A DNA stretch of 64,000 nucleotides, taken from Promethearchaeota archaeon. GTDB lineage: Archaea > Asgardarchaeota > Thorarchaeia > Thorarchaeales > Thorarchaeaceae. Each line of letters starts with the position of its first letter. Position 1 is the stretch's first letter. Positions 49,064-57,966 of this stretch are shown one piece after another. The stretch spans positions 1-64,000 of the forward strand of contig JBHLPF010000006.1 of assembly GCA_048939765.1 (NCBI GenBank), given 5' to 3'. The translations under genes and the position numbers were made by a program. Below the pieces are notes generated by a model. It made no database searches and was not told where the DNA came from. It saw only the letters and a list, made by a program, of their open reading frames with translations.

Positions 49064-50413
49064 TCAGCCAGAGGTCACCTGCGCAGAGCTTATGACGATT
49101 GATGGACTTATAATCGAGAAAGCAACTCGAGTATCTGCAGCTACCATTTCTATACGTTTCAACAGATCGCGCATGTTGATCCCAATGAGCGTATTCTGCA
49201 CAGGATGCTGAATCTCTCCATTCTCGAAATATGATCCTTCCATAATCATTGCACTGAGGTCACCGGTTGTCATGTTTGGCCGGTCTCCTGTGAAGCGGCA
49301 TAGAACTCCCTTGCCAACTTCTTTGATGAGATCATCCAATGTGCCCTTTCCAGGAGTAACTACGAAGTTTGAAGAGGATACCGAGGGCACTCCTGCATAT
49401 CCAGGCCGGCTGGCATTTCCAGTGCTATCGACACCATCCTTGTTGGCGGTGTAAGAGTTGTGCAATAGACTCTTCAGGACCCCACCATCAAGAATCTCGG
49501 TGCGTTGAGATGGATGGCCTTCGGCATCAAAAGACCGAGAAGAAACACCCGATGTCATAAGACCATCATCGATAATCCGAAGCTGCGGAGTCGATACCTC
49601 TTCGCCTAATGCATCTGCGATATAGGAGCGGCCATATTGGACTTCCTCGGCATTCACAGCTCCAGCAAATCCTCCCCCTAGGATGGTCCCAACGGCAAAT
49701 GGAGCAAGAATCACTGGCATCTCACCTCCCTCAACAGCCTTGGCCCCCAGATTGCTCAATGCATTCTCTGCAGATCTCGTTCCTATCCACTCAGGGTCAA
49801 TCTCCTTGAGTCTGCGAGAGAGCTGGACCTCATAGCTGGATGTCTGATCGCCATCTTCTTTGATTGTGGGCTCTGTATACATCCATACAGACGTCGATTC
49901 GCCAAACCCCTTGATTCCGAGCGAATTGACAATGACAGTAGTGCCAGTCGATGAACTCATTTTAGCTGCAACTGCAACATCCATGCCCTCCAGTCTTGAG
50001 CGTGCAGCGTCAACTCCACGAATGATCATTTCAGCGACTTGCTCAGAATCCAGCTCTACAATTTCGGAATCGTAGAGACCTTTAACGTCAGGGTAAATCC
50101 CATCGAACGATGGAAGGCTCACAAAGTCCGGGTCAGGAACAGAGGCCTTGGCGAGTCTAACAGACAGCTCAGCAGCCTCCAGAAGGTCGGCTTCTAGAAC
50201 AGTTGTGGCATATGCGAACCCCACTCTCTTGCCGACAACTGACCGAATTCCGCAGCCTGTATCACGATTCTCTGAGGCACTTTTGACTGAATTGTTCTCT
50301 ACATCGATGGAGAAGGTACGGGATGATGACGTGTAAACCTCCACCTGGCCGGCACCAAAAGACTCAGCCTTCTTAGCTGCTTTTTCCGCGATGTCTAGAA
50401 GATTCTCCATCAC
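49064..50413 (-). CDS. pmbA: PmbA/TldE family protein
   Basis: GCGIR, FDAEG, STGNA, TTGDLS; no HExxxH. Confidence 0.9.
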   Translation of the reverse strand: MMENLLDIAEKAAKKAESFGAGQVEVYTSSSRTFSIDVENNSVKSASENRDTGCGIRSVVGKRVGFAYATTVLEADLLEAAELSVRLAKASVPDPDFVSLPSFDGIYPDVKGLYDSEIVELDSEQVAEMIIRGVDAARSRLEGMDVAVAAKMSSSTGTTVIVNSLGIKGFGESTSVWMYTEPTIKEDGDQTSSYEVQLSRRLKEIDPEWIGTRSAENALSNLGAKAVEGGEMPVILAPFAVGTILGGGFAGAVNAEEVQYGRSYIADALGEEVSTPQLRIIDDGLMTSGVSSRSFDAEGHPSQRTEILDGGVLKSLLHNSYTANKDGVDSTGNASRPGYAGVPSVSSSNFVVTPGKGTLDDLIKEVGKGVLCRFTGDRPNMTTGDLSAMIMEGSYFENGEIQHPVQNTLIGINMRDLLKRIEMVAADTRVAFSIISPSIVISSAQVTSG

Positions 50414-50414
50414 T

Positions 50415-51806
50415 CTACATGCCTCCTACAGGAATATTGCGAATCCTGGCATGTGGGCCTCCACTCATGTCAGGTACCATCTGTCCATTCTTCCCACAAG
50501 TCCCTGCATCCATGAGAAAGTCATTGCCAACAGCATCTATTTGGGCTAGTACGTCAAGAATCTGACCAGCAAGAGAAACGTCGCGGACCATTTGGCCAAG
50601 CTCACCATTCTCAATGAGATAGCCATGACTGGCTTGGAACATGAACTGTCCTTTTGCGGGCTCTGTGTACCCATAGTTGAAGCTGCAGAGCATTACCCCT
50701 TCTTTTGTGTCGGAAATCATCTCGTCGACGTCCCAATCACCTGGTTCCATGATGGTGTTGGACATCCTGGCCAATGGTGCGTGCATGAAGGACTGCGCTC
50801 TGGCAGAGCCATTTGGTTGCATATCCAAACGAACTGCAGTTTCAAGGGTGTGTAGAAGCTCGGTGAGTACACCATCTTTTACAAGAATTCGCTTCTTCGT
50901 CTTTGTTCCCTCCCAGTCATATTCAAATGAGCCCCGCTCTCCGGGCATAGTAGGGTCGTCGCTTAGATTAAGGTGATCAGGGCCAACACACTCTCCAACC
51001 TTGTCCTCGAGAACTGTCGTATGAGCTGGCCAGTTATCTGCTTCGCAGGCATGACCAAATGCCTCATGAACCATTACGCCATTTAGGACTGGGTCCATGA
51101 TAACATCGTAGGTTCCTCCCTTTGCAGCTACAGATGATAGCAAATCAATTGCCATCTTTGCAGATTCCTCACCGATGGTCTGGGGCCGCTCTAACTCCAT
51201 CATCTCAAAACCACCCCTGACACCGTAGGACTTGAACGCCCTTTGCCTGTTAGCACCATCTTTAGCGGTTGAAACAGAAATGACTCTAGGAAGAGCATTT
51301 TGCATACTCACACTTGTTCCAAAGGAATTGGTGACATAGAGATCAGTCCAGAGATCACCGTATATAGAGCGGGTATTGACAATCCTCTTGTCATAAGCAC
51401 GAGACTGCTCATCGATTCTCTTGATATACTCAATCTTGTCCTCAACCGAAATATCCCTGAAGGGCTTTTTCAGCTTGACTTCAACCTTGTCATTGAAGGT
51501 AGGCCCATCCATCTCAAACTTCTCATTGACCTTTGTCTTGGTGGCCATGGCTAGCCTAGCAACTGATTCACCAGTTTCACGCATGCCCTTAGCAGTAAGG
51601 TCAGTTGTCTGAGCAAAGGCCCAAGCGCCATCAATGAAAGCTCGAATTCCAGCCCCCTTCAGTCGTGAGGCAACAGACCTCTTTGTCACACCATCCGTCA
51701 TCTCAATGATGGTGGTGACAGTGTTTTCTATTCGCACATCAGCGAATTTTGCTCTAGCATTGATAGCCGCCTCAATTGCAGCCCGAGCTATGTCTTCCAT
51801 AAGCAT
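50415..51806 (-). CDS. tldD: TldD family metalloprotease
   Basis: HEAFGHACEAD, YDWEG, RMSNT, CGKNGQ. Confidence 0.93.
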   Translation of the reverse strand: MLMEDIARAAIEAAINARAKFADVRIENTVTTIIEMTDGVTKRSVASRLKGAGIRAFIDGAWAFAQTTDLTAKGMRETGESVARLAMATKTKVNEKFEMDGPTFNDKVEVKLKKPFRDISVEDKIEYIKRIDEQSRAYDKRIVNTRSIYGDLWTDLYVTNSFGTSVSMQNALPRVISVSTAKDGANRQRAFKSYGVRGGFEMMELERPQTIGEESAKMAIDLLSSVAAKGGTYDVIMDPVLNGVMVHEAFGHACEADNWPAHTTVLEDKVGECVGPDHLNLSDDPTMPGERGSFEYDWEGTKTKKRILVKDGVLTELLHTLETAVRLDMQPNGSARAQSFMHAPLARMSNTIMEPGDWDVDEMISDTKEGVMLCSFNYGYTEPAKGQFMFQASHGYLIENGELGQMVRDVSLAGQILDVLAQIDAVGNDFLMDAGTCGKNGQMVPDMSGGPHARIRNIPVGGM

Positions 51807-51959: not shown

Positions 51960-53528
51960 TTGACTCTAGACTCCCTATCTCATCGCTGTCCTGTATGTCA
52001 AAGAAACAGAGCCAGTCACTTGTGTGAAGATTGCGGTACAGTGTTATGCTCAGAGTGCCTTGACTCAAGGACCAAAGAGTATCATATGTGTCGCGATTGT
52101 CACGCGACATTGACCACGTTACAAGGTGAAAAGATAGACAGCTGTCCTGAGTGCGAGTCTGAGAACATTGATACAGGTAGGCGTACAGCTGACATATGTC
52201 CTAGATGCCACTCAAGTCGTATTATCCTACTGGAAGAGCGGAGAAGAACTCTTGCTCAAGAACTTAGACAGGCCATCATGAGCATTCAGTATGGCCACAC
52301 CAAATTGCGAGAGTTCATGACTAAGCTTGACAATGCCAAGAGAACGCTTGTTTCTCTCAGGATGGCTAACTTCCTACACTATCATTGGATAGAGGAGAAG
52401 GTCGAGTCAGTGCAGGATGAAATGCCAGCAATCAAGAGTCGAATTGGAAACCAAGCAGAGATAGTCGCAAAGCAAATCGCTGCTGAAACAAAAGGCCTCA
52501 TTGATTATAGCAAGTGGACTCCTGCTCAGTTCCCGTTCATTGAGGGTGTCAGAAATAGAGTATCAGAGCTTGGCACGTACTACAGACAACACGTCGACGA
52601 TAGTCTTGATGAGGTCAGACCAAGACTGGAGGAAGTAATGGCCCAGCTTGATGGTCTGAGCTATCACAGGAGAGAATTCACAGAGTTCTATGAACATGGT
52701 GAACTCGCTGTTAATGAATTGCCTGTGGCGGCTCTGCCGGACATTAGGGTTGTGGGTAGCAACTTCCTGAAAAACGACAAGGCCTACGGTACGCTCTTCA
52801 TCACTAACAAGAGGCTATTCCTAGTGGCTGAAACGGGAATACTACGCAAGAAGACTGAGATTGTGTTCCAGTTTCCGCTTATGTATTTGAAAGATATCGA
52901 AGAGGATGGCCGCCTTCGCAAGAGAATTGTATTGCGACTTAAACAGGGCGACGTTAAGATCTCCTGCAGCGAGGATACAAAAAAGGTCATGCCAGATTAC
53001 TTCGAGATTGCGAGGAAATTCGAGAAGTATATGCAGAGTGATCTTCAGAGAGTTCGGAAGATTGAGCAGAAGAACCTCAACATTAGCGATGTCAGACTCA
53101 AGATTGAAGGATTGGTATACTCATTGCTCTCCACGACTGGAAATGCCTCAGAAGCACCGCAAGGAAGCCGAATGAGAACCAGATTCTATCAACCACGATC
53201 GATTCCACCGAGATATGGACAAATCGAGAATCCGTATGACCATCCCAGAGTGTTCAAGGAGCATCTTGAGGACACTCTTGGTCGCACAGACTATGGTCGA
53301 ACCTACTATCGAGAGGCCCCCTATGCACCTCCCGAGTCTGATATAGAATATCTCAAGAGGAACGCAATAGAGATTCAGAATGCGATTAACGAGACTCTAC
53401 ATCTAATGAGAAACGGACATTTAGTCCCTGAAGACTTCATCAGAAGGTATCGCGGTCTCATGCGCGACTCATATCAGACCAATCATGAAATCGAGCGTGC
53501 TACCCGGCATTTTCATGGGTACAGATGA
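51960..53528 (+). CDS. Zn-finger + coiled-coil + PH(GRAM/GLUE)-like + steadiness-box-like protein; candidate ESCRT-I subunit or adaptor
   Basis: Six CxxC pairs; GTLFITNKRLFLV; Pro/Tyr-rich linker; C-terminal NAINETLHLMRNGHLVPEDFIRRYRGL; GGAGGT SD before the TTG start. Confidence 0.65.
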   Translation: MTLDSLSHRCPVCQRNRASHLCEDCGTVLCSECLDSRTKEYHMCRDCHATLTTLQGEKIDSCPECESENIDTGRRTADICPRCHSSRIILLEERRRTLAQELRQAIMSIQYGHTKLREFMTKLDNAKRTLVSLRMANFLHYHWIEEKVESVQDEMPAIKSRIGNQAEIVAKQIAAETKGLIDYSKWTPAQFPFIEGVRNRVSELGTYYRQHVDDSLDEVRPRLEEVMAQLDGLSYHRREFTEFYEHGELAVNELPVAALPDIRVVGSNFLKNDKAYGTLFITNKRLFLVAETGILRKKTEIVFQFPLMYLKDIEEDGRLRKRIVLRLKQGDVKISCSEDTKKVMPDYFEIARKFEKYMQSDLQRVRKIEQKNLNISDVRLKIEGLVYSLLSTTGNASEAPQGSRMRTRFYQPRSIPPRYGQIENPYDHPRVFKEHLEDTLGRTDYGRTYYREAPYAPPESDIEYLKRNAIEIQNAINETLHLMRNGHLVPEDFIRRYRGLMRDSYQTNHEIERATRHFHGYR

Positions 53529-53531
53529 TGA

Positions 53532-54155
53532 CTAAATACCCAGTTCACGCTCCAAATCCTTAATGTCTTTCTCAAGGGTTTCTGACTCAGATGCAGGCCT
53601 GGCTGCTACTGATGCTGCATCAGCCAATCCAACTTCCACATCGATTTCTTGCATGGCAGCAGCCACATCATCTGAACTAACTTCCATGCTCGCATCAAGC
53701 GCCTCTGCAGATATTGCACTCTCAATCTCGAACTCATCTAATCGACGAGTGATCTCGTCAATGTTCTCAACAAGCCGGCGGGTATCACTTGTATCGCCAA
53801 GCATTCCAAGGATCTTTGCAACCTGCTCGAGTGCGCGACCTGTCCTTGCTGATGTCTGTGCACGATTGAGGTGAGTAAGGATTTTGAGAATCTGAAGCCT
53901 CGCCTTGTCTGTGGAGAGTGCGTATCGTCTGAAACGTATCATCTCAGTTGCATAGGTCGTGAAGGCATCCATTTGTCCAGCCTGGCGAGCTTTGATAGCT
54001 CGAGCTCTTGTGTCACGCTCTTCTTTCTCCAACTTGCTTCTCTCACGAGCAAGTTGTTTCGTCAGAATTCTGAGCTGACTGGAAACCTCTCCAATGTCTG
54101 GTTTTTTCCGACCCCATCTGAATGCCTTTCTGAGTGAATCCAAAAGTCTCACCAC
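53532..54155 (-). CDS. ESCRT-III Snf7-family protein (Vps2/24/46-like)
   Basis: Basic N-terminal helical hairpin (LARERSKLEKEE..AIKARQAG..YATEMIRFRR), acidic C-half, terminal helix TLEKDIKDLERELGI. Confidence 0.85.
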   Translation of the reverse strand: MVRLLDSLRKAFRWGRKKPDIGEVSSQLRILTKQLARERSKLEKEERDTRARAIKARQAGQMDAFTTYATEMIRFRRYALSTDKARLQILKILTHLNRAQTSARTGRALEQVAKILGMLGDTSDTRRLVENIDEITRRLDEFEIESAISAEALDASMEVSSDDVAAAMQEIDVEVGLADAASVAARPASESETLEKDIKDLERELGI

Positions 54156-54315
54156 TTATCTATGGGCTTCGCCCCACAACACTAGGATGAATGTTCAGCG
54201 TTTAAACCTTCGTAGAGCTGGTGTATAGCATCTATCAATCCCAGTATTAGGGGCATATAGTGATAGTCACACAGAACTTATTATCATCACAGGTTCCAGT
54301 TAGACCTGAACAGGG

Positions 54316-55539
54316 ATGTCTGATAGATTAGACCAAGGCCTGAAAAATCTACTCGACAGGGCCATAGAACTTGACCAGAGAGGAATGAAGAAGGAAGCTG
54401 CTCAATACTACCTGAAGGCTAGCAAAATCCTGATCAAACTGTCAAATGCAGCATCTTTGCCCTCAGTTCAGAAACACTACCTTGACAGGGCACAAGAGTG
54501 TGTTGACAGAGTCCGCTATATCTCTGGTATAAAGAAGAAGGCGAGAGGACCTCCAGAGGGGTTGACGACTCCACCAGTGTTTTCTTCTGCTGAAACGGAA
54601 CCAACAGCCGAGAAGTCTACGGAAGCGATGGCATCTGAAGCAGAGGTGGATGAGGACACACGAAGACTGCAGGAGATGATAGCTGACACAATCATCACTG
54701 AGAAACCTAATGTCAAAATGAGTGATGTTGCGGGCCTAAAGGATGCCAAGCAGGCAATTAATGATGCAATTATCGCACCGATGAAACATCCAGAGCTCTT
54801 CAAGGGGAAGTCTCGGCAGCCATGGAGGGGAATATTGTTCTATGGTCCCGCAGGATGCGGAAAGACGTTGATAGCAAAAGCGGTGGCATCGGAGGTGAAT
54901 GCCACTTTCTTCAATGTTTCAGCAGGCAACATTGTAAGCAAGTGGCTTGGAGAGTCTGAGAAACTGGTCATGAACCTCTTCACTTTGGCCAGACGAAGTC
55001 AGCCTGCCATAGTCTTCATGGATGAGCTGGATTCCGTCGGGGTCTCTAGGTCTGGTGATGACGTCGGGGGAGAAAGAAGACTAAAGACTCAGCTTCTAAC
55101 AGAACTACAGGGACTAGCCAGCGACCTTGAAGATAGGGTCACAGTGATTGGTGCAACAAACCTGCCATGGGAGTTGGACTTCGCTCTTCGGTCGAGGTTT
55201 GAGAAGAAAATCCATGTGCCGCTGCCAGACAAGCCAGCTAGAAAGAGAATCTTCGAGATTCACATGGAAGAGATAAATGTCGCTCCTGAAGTGGACTTCG
55301 AGGAACTTGCGGATCTCAGTGAGGGATATAGTGGACGGGATATTAGCGTCGTCTGTAGAGAAGCAGCCATGGAACCGATAAGGGACCTTCAGCGCATTGG
55401 AAGAATGGACGAGGAAGAAGAGATTCTTGATATTCGACCAGTATCCAGAGAAGATCTTCTGCAGGCGATCGAGAACATAAAGCCGGCAACTTCTCCTGAG
55501 GATGTAAAGAGGTATATCGATTGGGCGGAGGGTTCCTAG
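54316..55539 (+). CDS. vps4: Vps4 AAA+ ATPase with N-terminal MIT domain
   Basis: RAIELDQRG..AAQYY MIT domain; PWRGILFYGPAGCGKT, SKWLGESEKLV, FMDELD, GATNLPWELD. Confidence 0.95.
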   Translation: MSDRLDQGLKNLLDRAIELDQRGMKKEAAQYYLKASKILIKLSNAASLPSVQKHYLDRAQECVDRVRYISGIKKKARGPPEGLTTPPVFSSAETEPTAEKSTEAMASEAEVDEDTRRLQEMIADTIITEKPNVKMSDVAGLKDAKQAINDAIIAPMKHPELFKGKSRQPWRGILFYGPAGCGKTLIAKAVASEVNATFFNVSAGNIVSKWLGESEKLVMNLFTLARRSQPAIVFMDELDSVGVSRSGDDVGGERRLKTQLLTELQGLASDLEDRVTVIGATNLPWELDFALRSRFEKKIHVPLPDKPARKRIFEIHMEEINVAPEVDFEELADLSEGYSGRDISVVCREAAMEPIRDLQRIGRMDEEEEILDIRPVSREDLLQAIENIKPATSPEDVKRYIDWAEGS

Positions 55540-55542
55540 GGA

Positions 55543-56277
55543 GTGGGTGTCAGAGAGAGACGTAGAGAAAAAGAGAAAGAAAAGACTACGTCAGAAACAG
55601 CAACATCAGAACCCACCGTAGATGAGGCCATTCCAGCAGAAGAGATAGAAGAAGTGAAGGAAACCTACAGACCGGAAGCTGTTATGACGCAAGCGGCAAC
55701 AGAAACTGCTGTCGAAGAGAAGAGGGATTCAGTAGCTCAAGCTGAGGAAGTTCTAGTCAAACCGGATGAAGTCACCATCATGCCTCCATGGGGAGACCTT
55801 GGACAAACAGAGTGGATGTATGGCATACCTCCTCGAGAAGAAGACAGAGAGATGTGGGCTGAAGAGTGGTCTGATTTCGTCCTGAGATGGATGGAAGCAC
55901 ATGATGTCCATGTCCTTTCTGTGACTGCTTTCATCAAGGAACCCCCCTTTAATGAAATCACGAATAAAATCGATTCATTCAAGCTAATTGGCAATGTGCT
56001 CGTAGAGAAGGAAATTGCGGAGTGGCTGGATAGGAACCAAAGACAATTGCGAGTCTATTGGAGATTCCTTGAGGAATGGGCGGACATTATATATGAATGG
56101 GCCTTGAAGTCAGGGAAGGTCAGACTAGATGTGAAATCAATAGTCATTCAGGAAGAGGAATATAGCTTCGCTAGACTGCCAGAGAAGGATCTTCATCAGA
56201 TACTCCTGATAATGGTGGAGAAAGGACTTGCAGAGTGGGTGGACAAGAAAAGAGGGGCAATCAAGATCATCGTTTAA
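55543..56277 (+). CDS. vps25: ESCRT-II Vps25-like protein with acidic N-terminal extension
   Basis: WAEEWSDFVLRW, AEW..VYWR.LEEWADIIYEWA, L..MVEKGLAE; PP motifs at the N-terminus. Confidence 0.88.
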   Translation: MGVRERRREKEKEKTTSETATSEPTVDEAIPAEEIEEVKETYRPEAVMTQAATETAVEEKRDSVAQAEEVLVKPDEVTIMPPWGDLGQTEWMYGIPPREEDREMWAEEWSDFVLRWMEAHDVHVLSVTAFIKEPPFNEITNKIDSFKLIGNVLVEKEIAEWLDRNQRQLRVYWRFLEEWADIIYEWALKSGKVRLDVKSIVIQEEEYSFARLPEKDLHQILLIMVEKGLAEWVDKKRGAIKIIV

Positions 56278-56278
56278 C

Positions 56279-57052
56279 TTAACGTCGTGAAATAGATCCA
56301 CCATCGTCATGTTCCCTGGCACGCAGGCCTGGGAAGTAGTATCTACCCCCAGTTGAGAATCGAATGTCTGCCACTGCCATTCCGGCATCTGCTAGACTGG
56401 AGAGAACTTGCCTTGCATGATCCTCGGACCATTTCATGAGCATCATTACTTCCTCAACAGAAACATAGCCCTTAGATGCAGCGAGGTTTACAACATCCGC
56501 TTGATCCCTTCTGAGCTCAAGTGGGCGAAGCTCAACTACTTTTACACCACCGCGTAGCGTCCGTATGCCTGGTATTAGTCCATGCTCAGCAACCCGATTG
56601 ACAGCCTCGATAACATCACTGTAGCTTATTGCCTTAAGCTCAGGCATACGCTTCACAACTTCAACGATTAGCTCAGCGAGTCCCATGAGTCCCTTGGAGG
56701 CATGTACTGTTGCCACATCAAGAATTGCAAGACCAATGTGGTCGTAATATTCATCCATGGTCATTCCGTCTCCACGGAATCGGTTCTCACGACGGGAGAG
56801 GTCAAGCAGCATAATGGCATCAGGGAATCGTTCTGCAACATGTTCAGTCTGAATGAAGGTGCCAAAATCTAGGCCAATGCGCCTCAGATCTGCAATGTTA
56901 GCCTTAACCTCACTGGCTAGTGCTTCAGACTCCCTCTGATATGACCTGATGTCGACAATTCCCATGTCGAACATCTTCTTCAGCTGGTCAAGGGTGGCAA
57001 TTGAGGCGAAGAGTTCGGATTGGAGACGTTCTTGCATCAAAGAAACCTTCAC
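56279..57052 (-). CDS. Vps28-N-like domain fused to ESCRT-II Vps22/36 tandem winged-helix domain
   Basis: C-terminal DEYYDHIG..GLMGLAEL..ISYSDVIEAV..PLELRRDQ..GYVS..W..ARQVL..G..YYFP; N-terminal ELFASIATLDQLKKMFDMGIVD..Y. Confidence 0.8.
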   Translation of the reverse strand: MKVSLMQERLQSELFASIATLDQLKKMFDMGIVDIRSYQRESEALASEVKANIADLRRIGLDFGTFIQTEHVAERFPDAIMLLDLSRRENRFRGDGMTMDEYYDHIGLAILDVATVHASKGLMGLAELIVEVVKRMPELKAISYSDVIEAVNRVAEHGLIPGIRTLRGGVKVVELRPLELRRDQADVVNLAASKGYVSVEEVMMLMKWSEDHARQVLSSLADAGMAVADIRFSTGGRYYFPGLRAREHDDGGSISRR

Positions 57053-57240: not shown

Positions 57241-57966
57241 TTGCCTGAGGAGCAGATCATCGAATCGGTAATGAAACCGCGAGTATTGAGTTTGAGAATT
57301 ATCGTTGTGATAGTTCTGACGCTGACTATTTGCGTAGGATCTACAGAAGGACTTACCAATCACGGATTCTATTGGGGTATTGAGATTGGTGATAGGTTTG
57401 ACTATCACATGGAGCTTCGGCTCCCAGATTCTAGTAAAAACAAAGCCCTTGATTATTATGTGGTTGTAGATGATTTGCCTTCAATTGATGAGAATATCAC
57501 AGACATACCTCAAATCACTGGTGATGTATATGACTGGAACAATTATCATTCATTCTACTTGATGAACGATACAAGGATTACATCTCAGACGAACATCTCA
57601 GACGATCTCAGACAAACTCTGCATTGGAGAGCTTTTCCAGTTGGTAACTGGAGCCTTGTCAATGATTTATTCCTCATACCGAAAAATAATAGCTTGTTTG
57701 AGGTCCAGACATTTGACACTGCAGCTGATTGGGGGTATAGTATCACTGGTATTGTGTTCGGAATTACAGTAACAGAAACTGGGAGGTATTCTAAAGAAAC
57801 TGGTGCATTGATCTTTTACGAGTTGAACGACCAAAGATTCAATGAATCAATCTACTCAGTTCAGATTACAATTGTTGGTGACGCTGTTCCATTGTTTGTG
57901 TTAATTGGAGGGGCATCAATTGGACTATTGGTTGTTGCATTGGCGGTCCTGAAGAAGAGAGTCTAG
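57241..57966 (+). CDS. Secreted, C-terminally anchored surface protein
   Basis: Signal-like IIVVIVLTLTICV, several N-x-S/T sequons, terminal TM helix plus KKRV; AT-rich. Confidence 0.7.
   Translation: MPEEQIIESVMKPRVLSLRIIVVIVLTLTICVGSTEGLTNHGFYWGIEIGDRFDYHMELRLPDSSKNKALDYYVVVDDLPSIDENITDIPQITGDVYDWNNYHSFYLMNDTRITSQTNISDDLRQTLHWRAFPVGNWSLVNDLFLIPKNNSLFEVQTFDTAADWGYSITGIVFGITVTETGRYSKETGALIFYELNDQRFNESIYSVQITIVGDAVPLFVLIGGASIGLLVVALAVLKKRV

Follow-up and report, generated by a model that had tools for sequence, protein, structure and literature searches.

The stretch of DNA analysed here (hereafter the window) comprises bases 1-64000 of contig JBHLPF010000006.1 (C60) of a Promethearchaeota archaeon of the family Thorarchaeaceae (GenBank assembly GCA_048939765.1; genome size 3.37 Mb, 88.5% complete), and carries five adjacent genes encoding components of the membrane-remodelling ESCRT machinery. 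With a probability of roughly 80%, they make up a Thorarchaeota genome's core ESCRT locus, in which a 522-residue protein of the Znr_CC_PH_SB family serves as an upstream, ESCRT-I-like adaptor and recruitment proceeds by a route other than ubiquitin. The closest database homologues are nearly all labelled Candidatus Thorarchaeota, and the locus is the standard five-gene ESCRT cluster of this lineage, which is real but already published between 2022 and 2024.

Asgard ESCRT systems bear on the origin of the eukaryotic ubiquitin-ESCRT sorting pathway, and the Thorarchaeota, possessing ESCRT-I/II/III/Vps4 but no ubiquitin, provide the natural case in point. An initial annotation, made by a model from the letters and translations of the window, had left undecided whether published Asgard ESCRT surveys cover the architecture; the adaptor architecture, the fusion of a Vps28-N-like domain to Vps22 and the ubiquitin-less Thorarchaeota are already described in two reports (PMC9192718, PMC10936438). 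Since the ubiquitin-less set and both unusual proteins are thus in the literature, the window adds one more member to a known group.

Gene content and organisation of the ESCRT locus

The five genes are separated by 3, 160, 3 and 1 nt, in agreement with the tight packing around a single divergent gap reported in the initial annotation. Their positions in the window are as follows.

51960-53528, forward strand: Znr_CC_PH_SB adaptor, 522 residues (open reading frame (ORF) list, Pfam, AlphaFold2 model, family alignment)
53532-54155, reverse strand: ESCRT-III protein of the Snf7 family, 207 residues (Snf7 match; orthologue of the ESCRT3A of Hatano et al. 2022)
54156-54315, no strand: divergent intergenic region of 160 nt between ESCRT-III and Vps4, putative site of both promoters
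54316-55539, forward strand: Vps4 ATPase, 407 residues, with MIT-like N-terminus, AAA, AAA lid and Vps4_C (Pfam)
55543-56277, forward strand: Vps25 (ESCRT-II), 244 residues (Pfam; orthology to ThorAB25_09020)
56279-57052, reverse strand: Vps22/EAP30 (ESCRT-II), 257-residue ORF in which residues 1-86 form a hairpin domain like Vps28-N (Pfam, structure)

The ESCRT-III gene is convergent with that of the adaptor, and Vps25 is read in the same direction as Vps4. With two pairs of genes convergent and one divergent, the locus comprises four transcription units and not a single operon. Pfam searches bore out the three genes that had been recognised from their translations as ESCRT-III, MIT-Vps4 and Vps25, with scores of 42.4 bits for Snf7 (cut-off 27.3), 134 bits for AAA together with AAA_lid_3 and Vps4_C (25.8 bits; cut-off 21.3), and 59.8 bits for ESCRT-II/Vps25; the MIT match at the N-terminus of Vps4 (23.6 bits) falls under the cut-off of 30. 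The EAP30 match of Vps22 scores 51.4 bits. The Pfam scan detected no winged-helix (wH) extension in the ESCRT-III protein of the window, and in Vps25 about 85 residues of charged, low-complexity sequence extend the N-terminus. A GGAGG motif lies 8 nt 5' of the TTG start of the adaptor gene, and Vps22 probably starts at M6 (position 57037, giving 252 residues), because the family consensus begins at this position and the homologues have this length.

The proposal that the machine is contained in these five genes has to be given up, because the genome encodes, at sites unlinked to the locus, a second ESCRT-III paralogue (C8:55992-56486, reverse strand = L060:1378-2154:-; Snf7 57.7 bits) and a Vps28-like/BAR-like protein that is conserved. 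The latter, a protein of 411 residues (C21:29064-30296, reverse strand = L001:838-2073:-), has weak Pfam matches to VPS28 (residues 49-191) and BAR (230-377) and is conserved in 80 of 86 family genomes, including all 23 of high quality; a phmmer search of it against the PDB found nothing. It is likely to be the Vps28-like component of the lineage and may correspond to the BAR/Vps28 architecture listed in Table S3 of Makarova et al. 2024 (PMC10936438).

Domain architecture of the 522-residue adaptor

Single-sequence Pfam searches with the adaptor gave sub-threshold DZR and bPH_3 matches only. The family was analysed as an alignment of 51 sequences, over which the Pfam counts below are taken, along with an AlphaFold2 model of mean predicted local distance difference test (pLDDT) score 78.7. 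The N-terminus is modelled as small zinc modules, and the alignment places three Zn sites at C10/C13/C30/C33, C22/C25/C44/C47 and C62/C65/C80/C83. The cysteines at 22, 25, 30, 33, 44 and 47 and at 62, 65, 80 and 83 are invariant or near-invariant and the CxxC at 10/13 is present in the family consensus; Zn ribbon matches to DZR and zf-B_box occur in 38 and 27 of the 51 members, respectively (best E 7.9e-6). In the model, four long helices (91-246) are followed by a beta-sandwich (255-335) and a helix (338-358), and a disordered, poorly conserved linker (395-456) leads to a C-terminal two-helix hairpin (459-520) of pLDDT above 90.

As modelled, the beta-sandwich and its helix form a GRAM/GLUE-type PH domain (approximately residues 250-358). 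Structural searches with the whole model matched this part to the PH-GRAM domain of MTMR2 (Z 12.8, root-mean-square deviation (rmsd) 2.6 over 106 residues), Lam6 (Z 12.0) and the GLUE domain of EAP45 (2dx5_A; Z 10.3, 22% identity), and Foldseek matched 2hth_B with a template modelling (TM) score of 0.59. Matches to PH-type Pfam families are distributed accordingly in the alignment (bPH_3 39/51, GRAM 20/51, Vps36_ESCRT-II 10/51). A likeness to DH-PH proteins, obtained with the whole adaptor in Foldseek, was set aside as its rmsd is near 20 Å and the PH part alone is informative.

The initial annotation had noted that a helix pair of this protein resembles an ESCRT-I core domain, and the C-terminal hairpin does collect such similarities. 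Sub-threshold matches to Vps23_core and Mod_r were found on it in 7 and 6 of the 51 members, respectively; in the three homologues checked, the Vps23_core matches (463-504, 468-510 and 493-534; best E 5.7e-4) all fall on the hairpin, and the family profile finds the yeast Vps23 core in the PDB at E 0.11 over profile positions 457-515. The signal is confined to some homologues, as PF09454 (Vps23_core) run directly against the genome itself gave nothing at E <= 10. An ESM Atlas search with residues 445-522 returned no usable match. On these sequence similarities, the identification of the hairpin as a steadiness box is plausible but not proven. Two free-standing steadiness-box candidates obtained with a hidden Markov model (HMM) of the adaptor tail were rejected, one (C35:1917-2216) for overlapping a SpoU methylase gene in another frame and the other (C46:50455-50880) as a generic coiled coil.

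The Vps28-N/Vps22 fusion

The C-terminal 150 residues of Vps22 match human SNF8 at E 6.9e-20 in a profile search of the PDB, and the Vps22 model matches 2zme_A at E 3.2e-7 in Foldseek. The N-terminal 86 residues are predicted to fold as a helical hairpin domain, which superposes on 6vme_U, a chain of the human ESCRT-I headpiece (Z 12.1, rmsd 2.2, 84/102 residues), and on yeast Vps28-N (2f6m_D, Z 10.7; 2caz_B, Z 9.6). The Vps22 profile also reaches the yeast Vps28 core in the PDB at E 0.15, and VPS28 Pfam matches are present in 23 of the 44 members over which the Vps22 family was counted. In view of these superpositions, the profile match and the Pfam matches, the fusion of a Vps28-N-like domain to Vps22 is well supported, and the second ESCRT-I-like helix pair that had been pointed out in the window is thereby substantiated.

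Ubiquitin and the distribution of the adaptor in Asgard genomes

The absence of a ubiquitin system, first noted within the window, extends to the 88.5%-complete genome: ubiquitin (PF00240) has no match, the best UEV match (E 0.62) is not over the cut-off, and no E2 (PF00179) exceeds the cut-off, the best being a fragment that scores 17 bits and contains an internal stop. Profile searches covered 400 Asgard genomes, 85 of them from the same family, and found ubiquitin in 289 of the 400 genomes vs none of the 85 and none in the one genome of the sister family (f2). Ubiquitin has thus been lost throughout the lineage, and its absence is no assembly gap. The adaptor was found in 295 of the 400 genomes, including 82 of the 85, and not in some families (f8, 0/31; f11, 0/22). 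The modest addition of this survey to the published record is the wider census that yields these counts of ubiquitin and adaptor in the family. Three ThiS/MoaD-type beta-grasp ORFs lie within 1 kb of each other in this genome (C17:3703-4618, forward strand) and its single ThiF-type E1 is on C94; these may be a SAMP-like set, here in Asgard archaea that have no ubiquitin.

In most Asgard families, the adaptor and ubiquitin occur together, as exemplified by f22 (adaptor 127/135, ubiquitin 133/135). The view that the adaptor operates instead of ubiquitin does not survive this co-occurrence, which indicates an ancestral component and not a substitute.

Conservation of gene linkage

The same gene order was observed in three Thorarchaeota metagenome-assembled genomes whose adaptors are about 50% identical, and it extends to the flanking TFIIB, ArgRS, TldD/PmbA and AspRS genes. 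Linkage was also examined in other families, at 15 loci. Ten of these, belonging to f2, f6, f14, f16, f22, f28 and f30, have an ESCRT-III gene directly beside that of the adaptor, in tail-to-tail orientation on the opposite strand. The ESCRT-III neighbours in distant loci were missed by single-sequence phmmer, recovered with jackhmmer and then checked by Pfam, where 8 of the 10 score above the Snf7 cut-off. The linkage of the 522-residue gene to ESCRT genes, proposed as a check on the initial annotation, therefore holds across Asgard families, and the conservation of the tail-to-tail pair in at least seven of them is a further modest addition to what is known.

In 8 of the 10 loci, the adaptor-adjacent ESCRT-III clearly scores higher to the unlinked C8 paralogue than to the window copy; both scores are weak for the neighbours in two f22 loci. 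The orthologue of the window's ESCRT-III sits beyond the first Snf7 neighbour in six of the ten, immediately so in three and at a distance of 2-7 kb in the others, and one f6 locus (L043) has the order adaptor, ESCRT-III, ESCRT-III, Vps4, Vps25. This pattern of paralogues makes the Thorarchaeota arrangement look like an ancestral cluster from which one ESCRT-III paralogue has moved away.

In f28, proteins of about 605 residues (L048:9016-10839:+ and L055:9392-11203:+) combine the adaptor's Zn/helical part with a Vps22-like region in one chain, and two more Vps22-like genes lie 7 kb distant in these loci. The fusion may correspond to the architecture of two winged helices, a steadiness box and three Zn ribbons published as cog.002441.

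Proposed mechanism and alternative interpretations

In the proposed scheme, Vps4 and the ESCRT-III subunit would form a scission and recycling module, with Vps25 and Vps22 as an ESCRT-II-like bridge in which Vps22 is probably a homodimer, as published for Thorarchaeota. The PH and Zn modules of the adaptor may bind membrane and/or cargo, and its C-terminal hairpin may dock onto a partner hairpin, for which the candidates are the Vps28-N-like hairpin at the N-terminus of Vps22 and/or the unlinked Vps28-like/BAR-like protein. The identities of the genes, the folds of their domains, the conserved linkage and the family-wide lack of ubiquitin are shown by the analysis, and the binding partners and the ligands of both modules are proposed. 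Recruitment cannot be mediated by ubiquitin and UEV, as the lineage is without eukaryote-type ubiquitin, E2 and UEV.

Several observations weigh against the adaptor being an ESCRT-I-like component of this kind. The steadiness-box call is drawn from sub-threshold sequence matches, and helical hairpins are a generic fold. In the whole-model structural search, the hairpin is nearest to the cytoplasmic domain of Prometheoarchaeum OST1 (Z 10.0), and no ESCRT-I chain is among the matches listed for it. The adaptor tail and the Vps22 N-terminus have no detected mutual sequence similarity (hhalign probability 1.5%). Synteny within the Thorarchaeota is by itself weak evidence, because the whole neighbourhood is syntenic there. 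Finally, the genome encodes eight ThiS/MoaD-type beta-grasp ORFs, one ThiF-type E1 and one borderline JAB protein, which leave room for a SAMP-type tag.

A more specific form of the scheme has the adaptor hairpin pairing directly with the Vps28-N-like hairpin of the Vps22 homodimer, giving a fused ESCRT-I/II supercomplex that would be targeted by the PH and Zn modules only and would dispense with a bridge of the Vps28-C:Vps36 type. This form is tentative, and somewhat doubtful as it stands; neither such a contact nor its stoichiometry was found stated in the available portions of the Asgard ESCRT literature. If true, the supercomplex could reflect either the pathway before ubiquitin arose or its state after ubiquitin had been lost.

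The hairpin also superposes on the filament hairpin of Sulfolobus islandicus CdvA (9s9g_A; Z 9.4, rmsd 1.1 over 67 residues), which suggests a different role, in which a membrane-bound adaptor recruits ESCRT-III directly, as CdvA does CdvB, and does not act as an ESCRT-I feeding ESCRT-II; such a system might serve division or membrane repair and not cargo sorting. In Asgard families at large, the gene most conserved next to that of the adaptor is an ESCRT-III gene, not Vps22 or Vps25, and Makarova et al. 2024 (PMC10936438) report that the steadiness box is similar to CdvA in HHpred. However, neither a PRC barrel nor an E3B-type peptide was found, no wH extension was detected in the window's ESCRT-III, published text argues that Asgard archaea retain FtsZ/SepF for division, and the yeast two-hybrid text of Hatano et al. 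2022 (PMC9192718) reports a possible interaction of the steadiness-box (SB) protein with Vps28. Recruitment of ESCRT-III in the manner of CdvA is thus unlikely, and the ESCRT-I-like adaptor is preferred. A role of the adaptor's GLUE-like PH domain, or of its Zn modules, in reading a non-ubiquitin beta-grasp tag of the SAMP/Urm1 type, which the beta-grasp, E1 and JAB genes (three of the ThiS/MoaD ORFs clustered on C17) and the resemblance of the PH domain to the ubiquitin-binding EAP45 GLUE domain would favour, is very improbable, as the genes in question all lie unlinked to the ESCRT locus and ThiS, MoaD and ThiF are present for sulfur transfer in 12-14 of 14 control genomes.

Neighbouring genes

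A tandem pair of TldD/PmbA metallopeptidase genes (49064-51806, reverse strand) lies immediately upstream of the ESCRT genes and is syntenic with them in all Thorarchaeota loci inspected. On the other side, an ORF of 241 residues (57241-57966, forward strand), divergent from Vps22, has hydrophobic segments at both termini and no Pfam match; its position is occupied in other Thorarchaeota loci by a different gene of about 375 residues, likewise without a Pfam match. Beyond the window, the same contig encodes a protein of 390 residues (C60:72367-73539, forward strand = L071:868-2040:+) with an IFT52 GIFT domain (70.7 bits) and a helical tail, in which neither Pfam nor the adaptor-tail HMM gave a steadiness-box signal.

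Comparison with known systems

In the words of Hatano et al. 2022 (PMC9192718), the Thorarchaeota 'seemingly lack true ubiquitin homologues'; their yeast two-hybrid set includes ThorAB25_08990 (SB), 09000 (ESCRT3A), 09020 (Vps25) and 09030 (Vps22). According to the same text, the Thor and Loki SB proteins may interact with Vps28 and Vps22 self-interacts, and the legend of Supplementary Fig. 8 names RING, CC, PH and SB domains. The ThorAB25_08990 sequence given in Supplementary Data 1 and the adaptor of the window are identical over long motifs such as MSIQYGHTKLREF and LVSLRMANFLHY, and the flanking genes are the same; the Vps22 sequence of ThorAB25 is plainly orthologous to that of the window. 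The ThorAB25 SB entry begins about 20 residues later and so is without the first CxxC pair, most likely through a difference in the annotated start, and otherwise nothing material differs.

Znr_CC_PH_SB (cog.011556) is described by Makarova et al. 2024 (PMC10936438) as what is likely to be an ancestral ESCRT-I component of Asgard archaea, with a PH domain that binds membranes, and is named the 'Steadiness/Vps23 box' family by Lu et al. 2023 (bioRxiv 10.1101/2023.07.25.550441), who report Loki- and Thorarchaeia as lacking UEV-Vps23. The adaptor of the window has the domain order of this family (Zn ribbons, helical/coiled-coil region, PH domain, C-terminal hairpin) and the same position in the locus, and the published Lokiarchaeum member of 651 residues is consistent with the homologues of about 700 residues in f22. 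Asgard Vps22 (cog.002769) is likewise described as carrying a fused steadiness box (Makarova et al. 2024), and no difference was found between it and the Vps22 of the window, both having an EAP30 tandem winged helix after a Vps28-N-like hairpin. Table S3 of that report assigns residues 1-70 of the Thor protein KXH75178.1 to PF03997 VPS28 (HHpred 99%, Vps28-N/SB), a call which the structural superposition of the window's Vps22 N-terminus reproduces.

The eukaryotic ESCRT-I headpiece, built from the Vps23 steadiness box, Vps28-N and Vps37 (2f6m, 2caz, 2p22, 6vme), has the same hairpin shape as the Thorarchaeota proteins; by profile, the adaptor tail is weakly similar to the Vps23 core, and the N-terminus of Vps22 to Vps28-N. 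The Thorarchaeota set differs in having no UEV, no Vps37 or Mvb12 and no ubiquitin in the lineage, and also in that the Vps28-N-like hairpin is fused to ESCRT-II while the Vps28-C-like region lies on a separate BAR-like protein. Although it is placed in an ESCRT-I-like protein and not in ESCRT-II, and is devoid of the split-PH NZF inserts of Vps36, the PH domain of the adaptor resembles the GLUE/GRAM-type PH domain of Vps36 (EAP45, 2dx5/2hth; compare MTMR2, 1lw3, and Lam6, 5yqr), both systems having the GRAM/GLUE subtype in an upstream ESCRT component.

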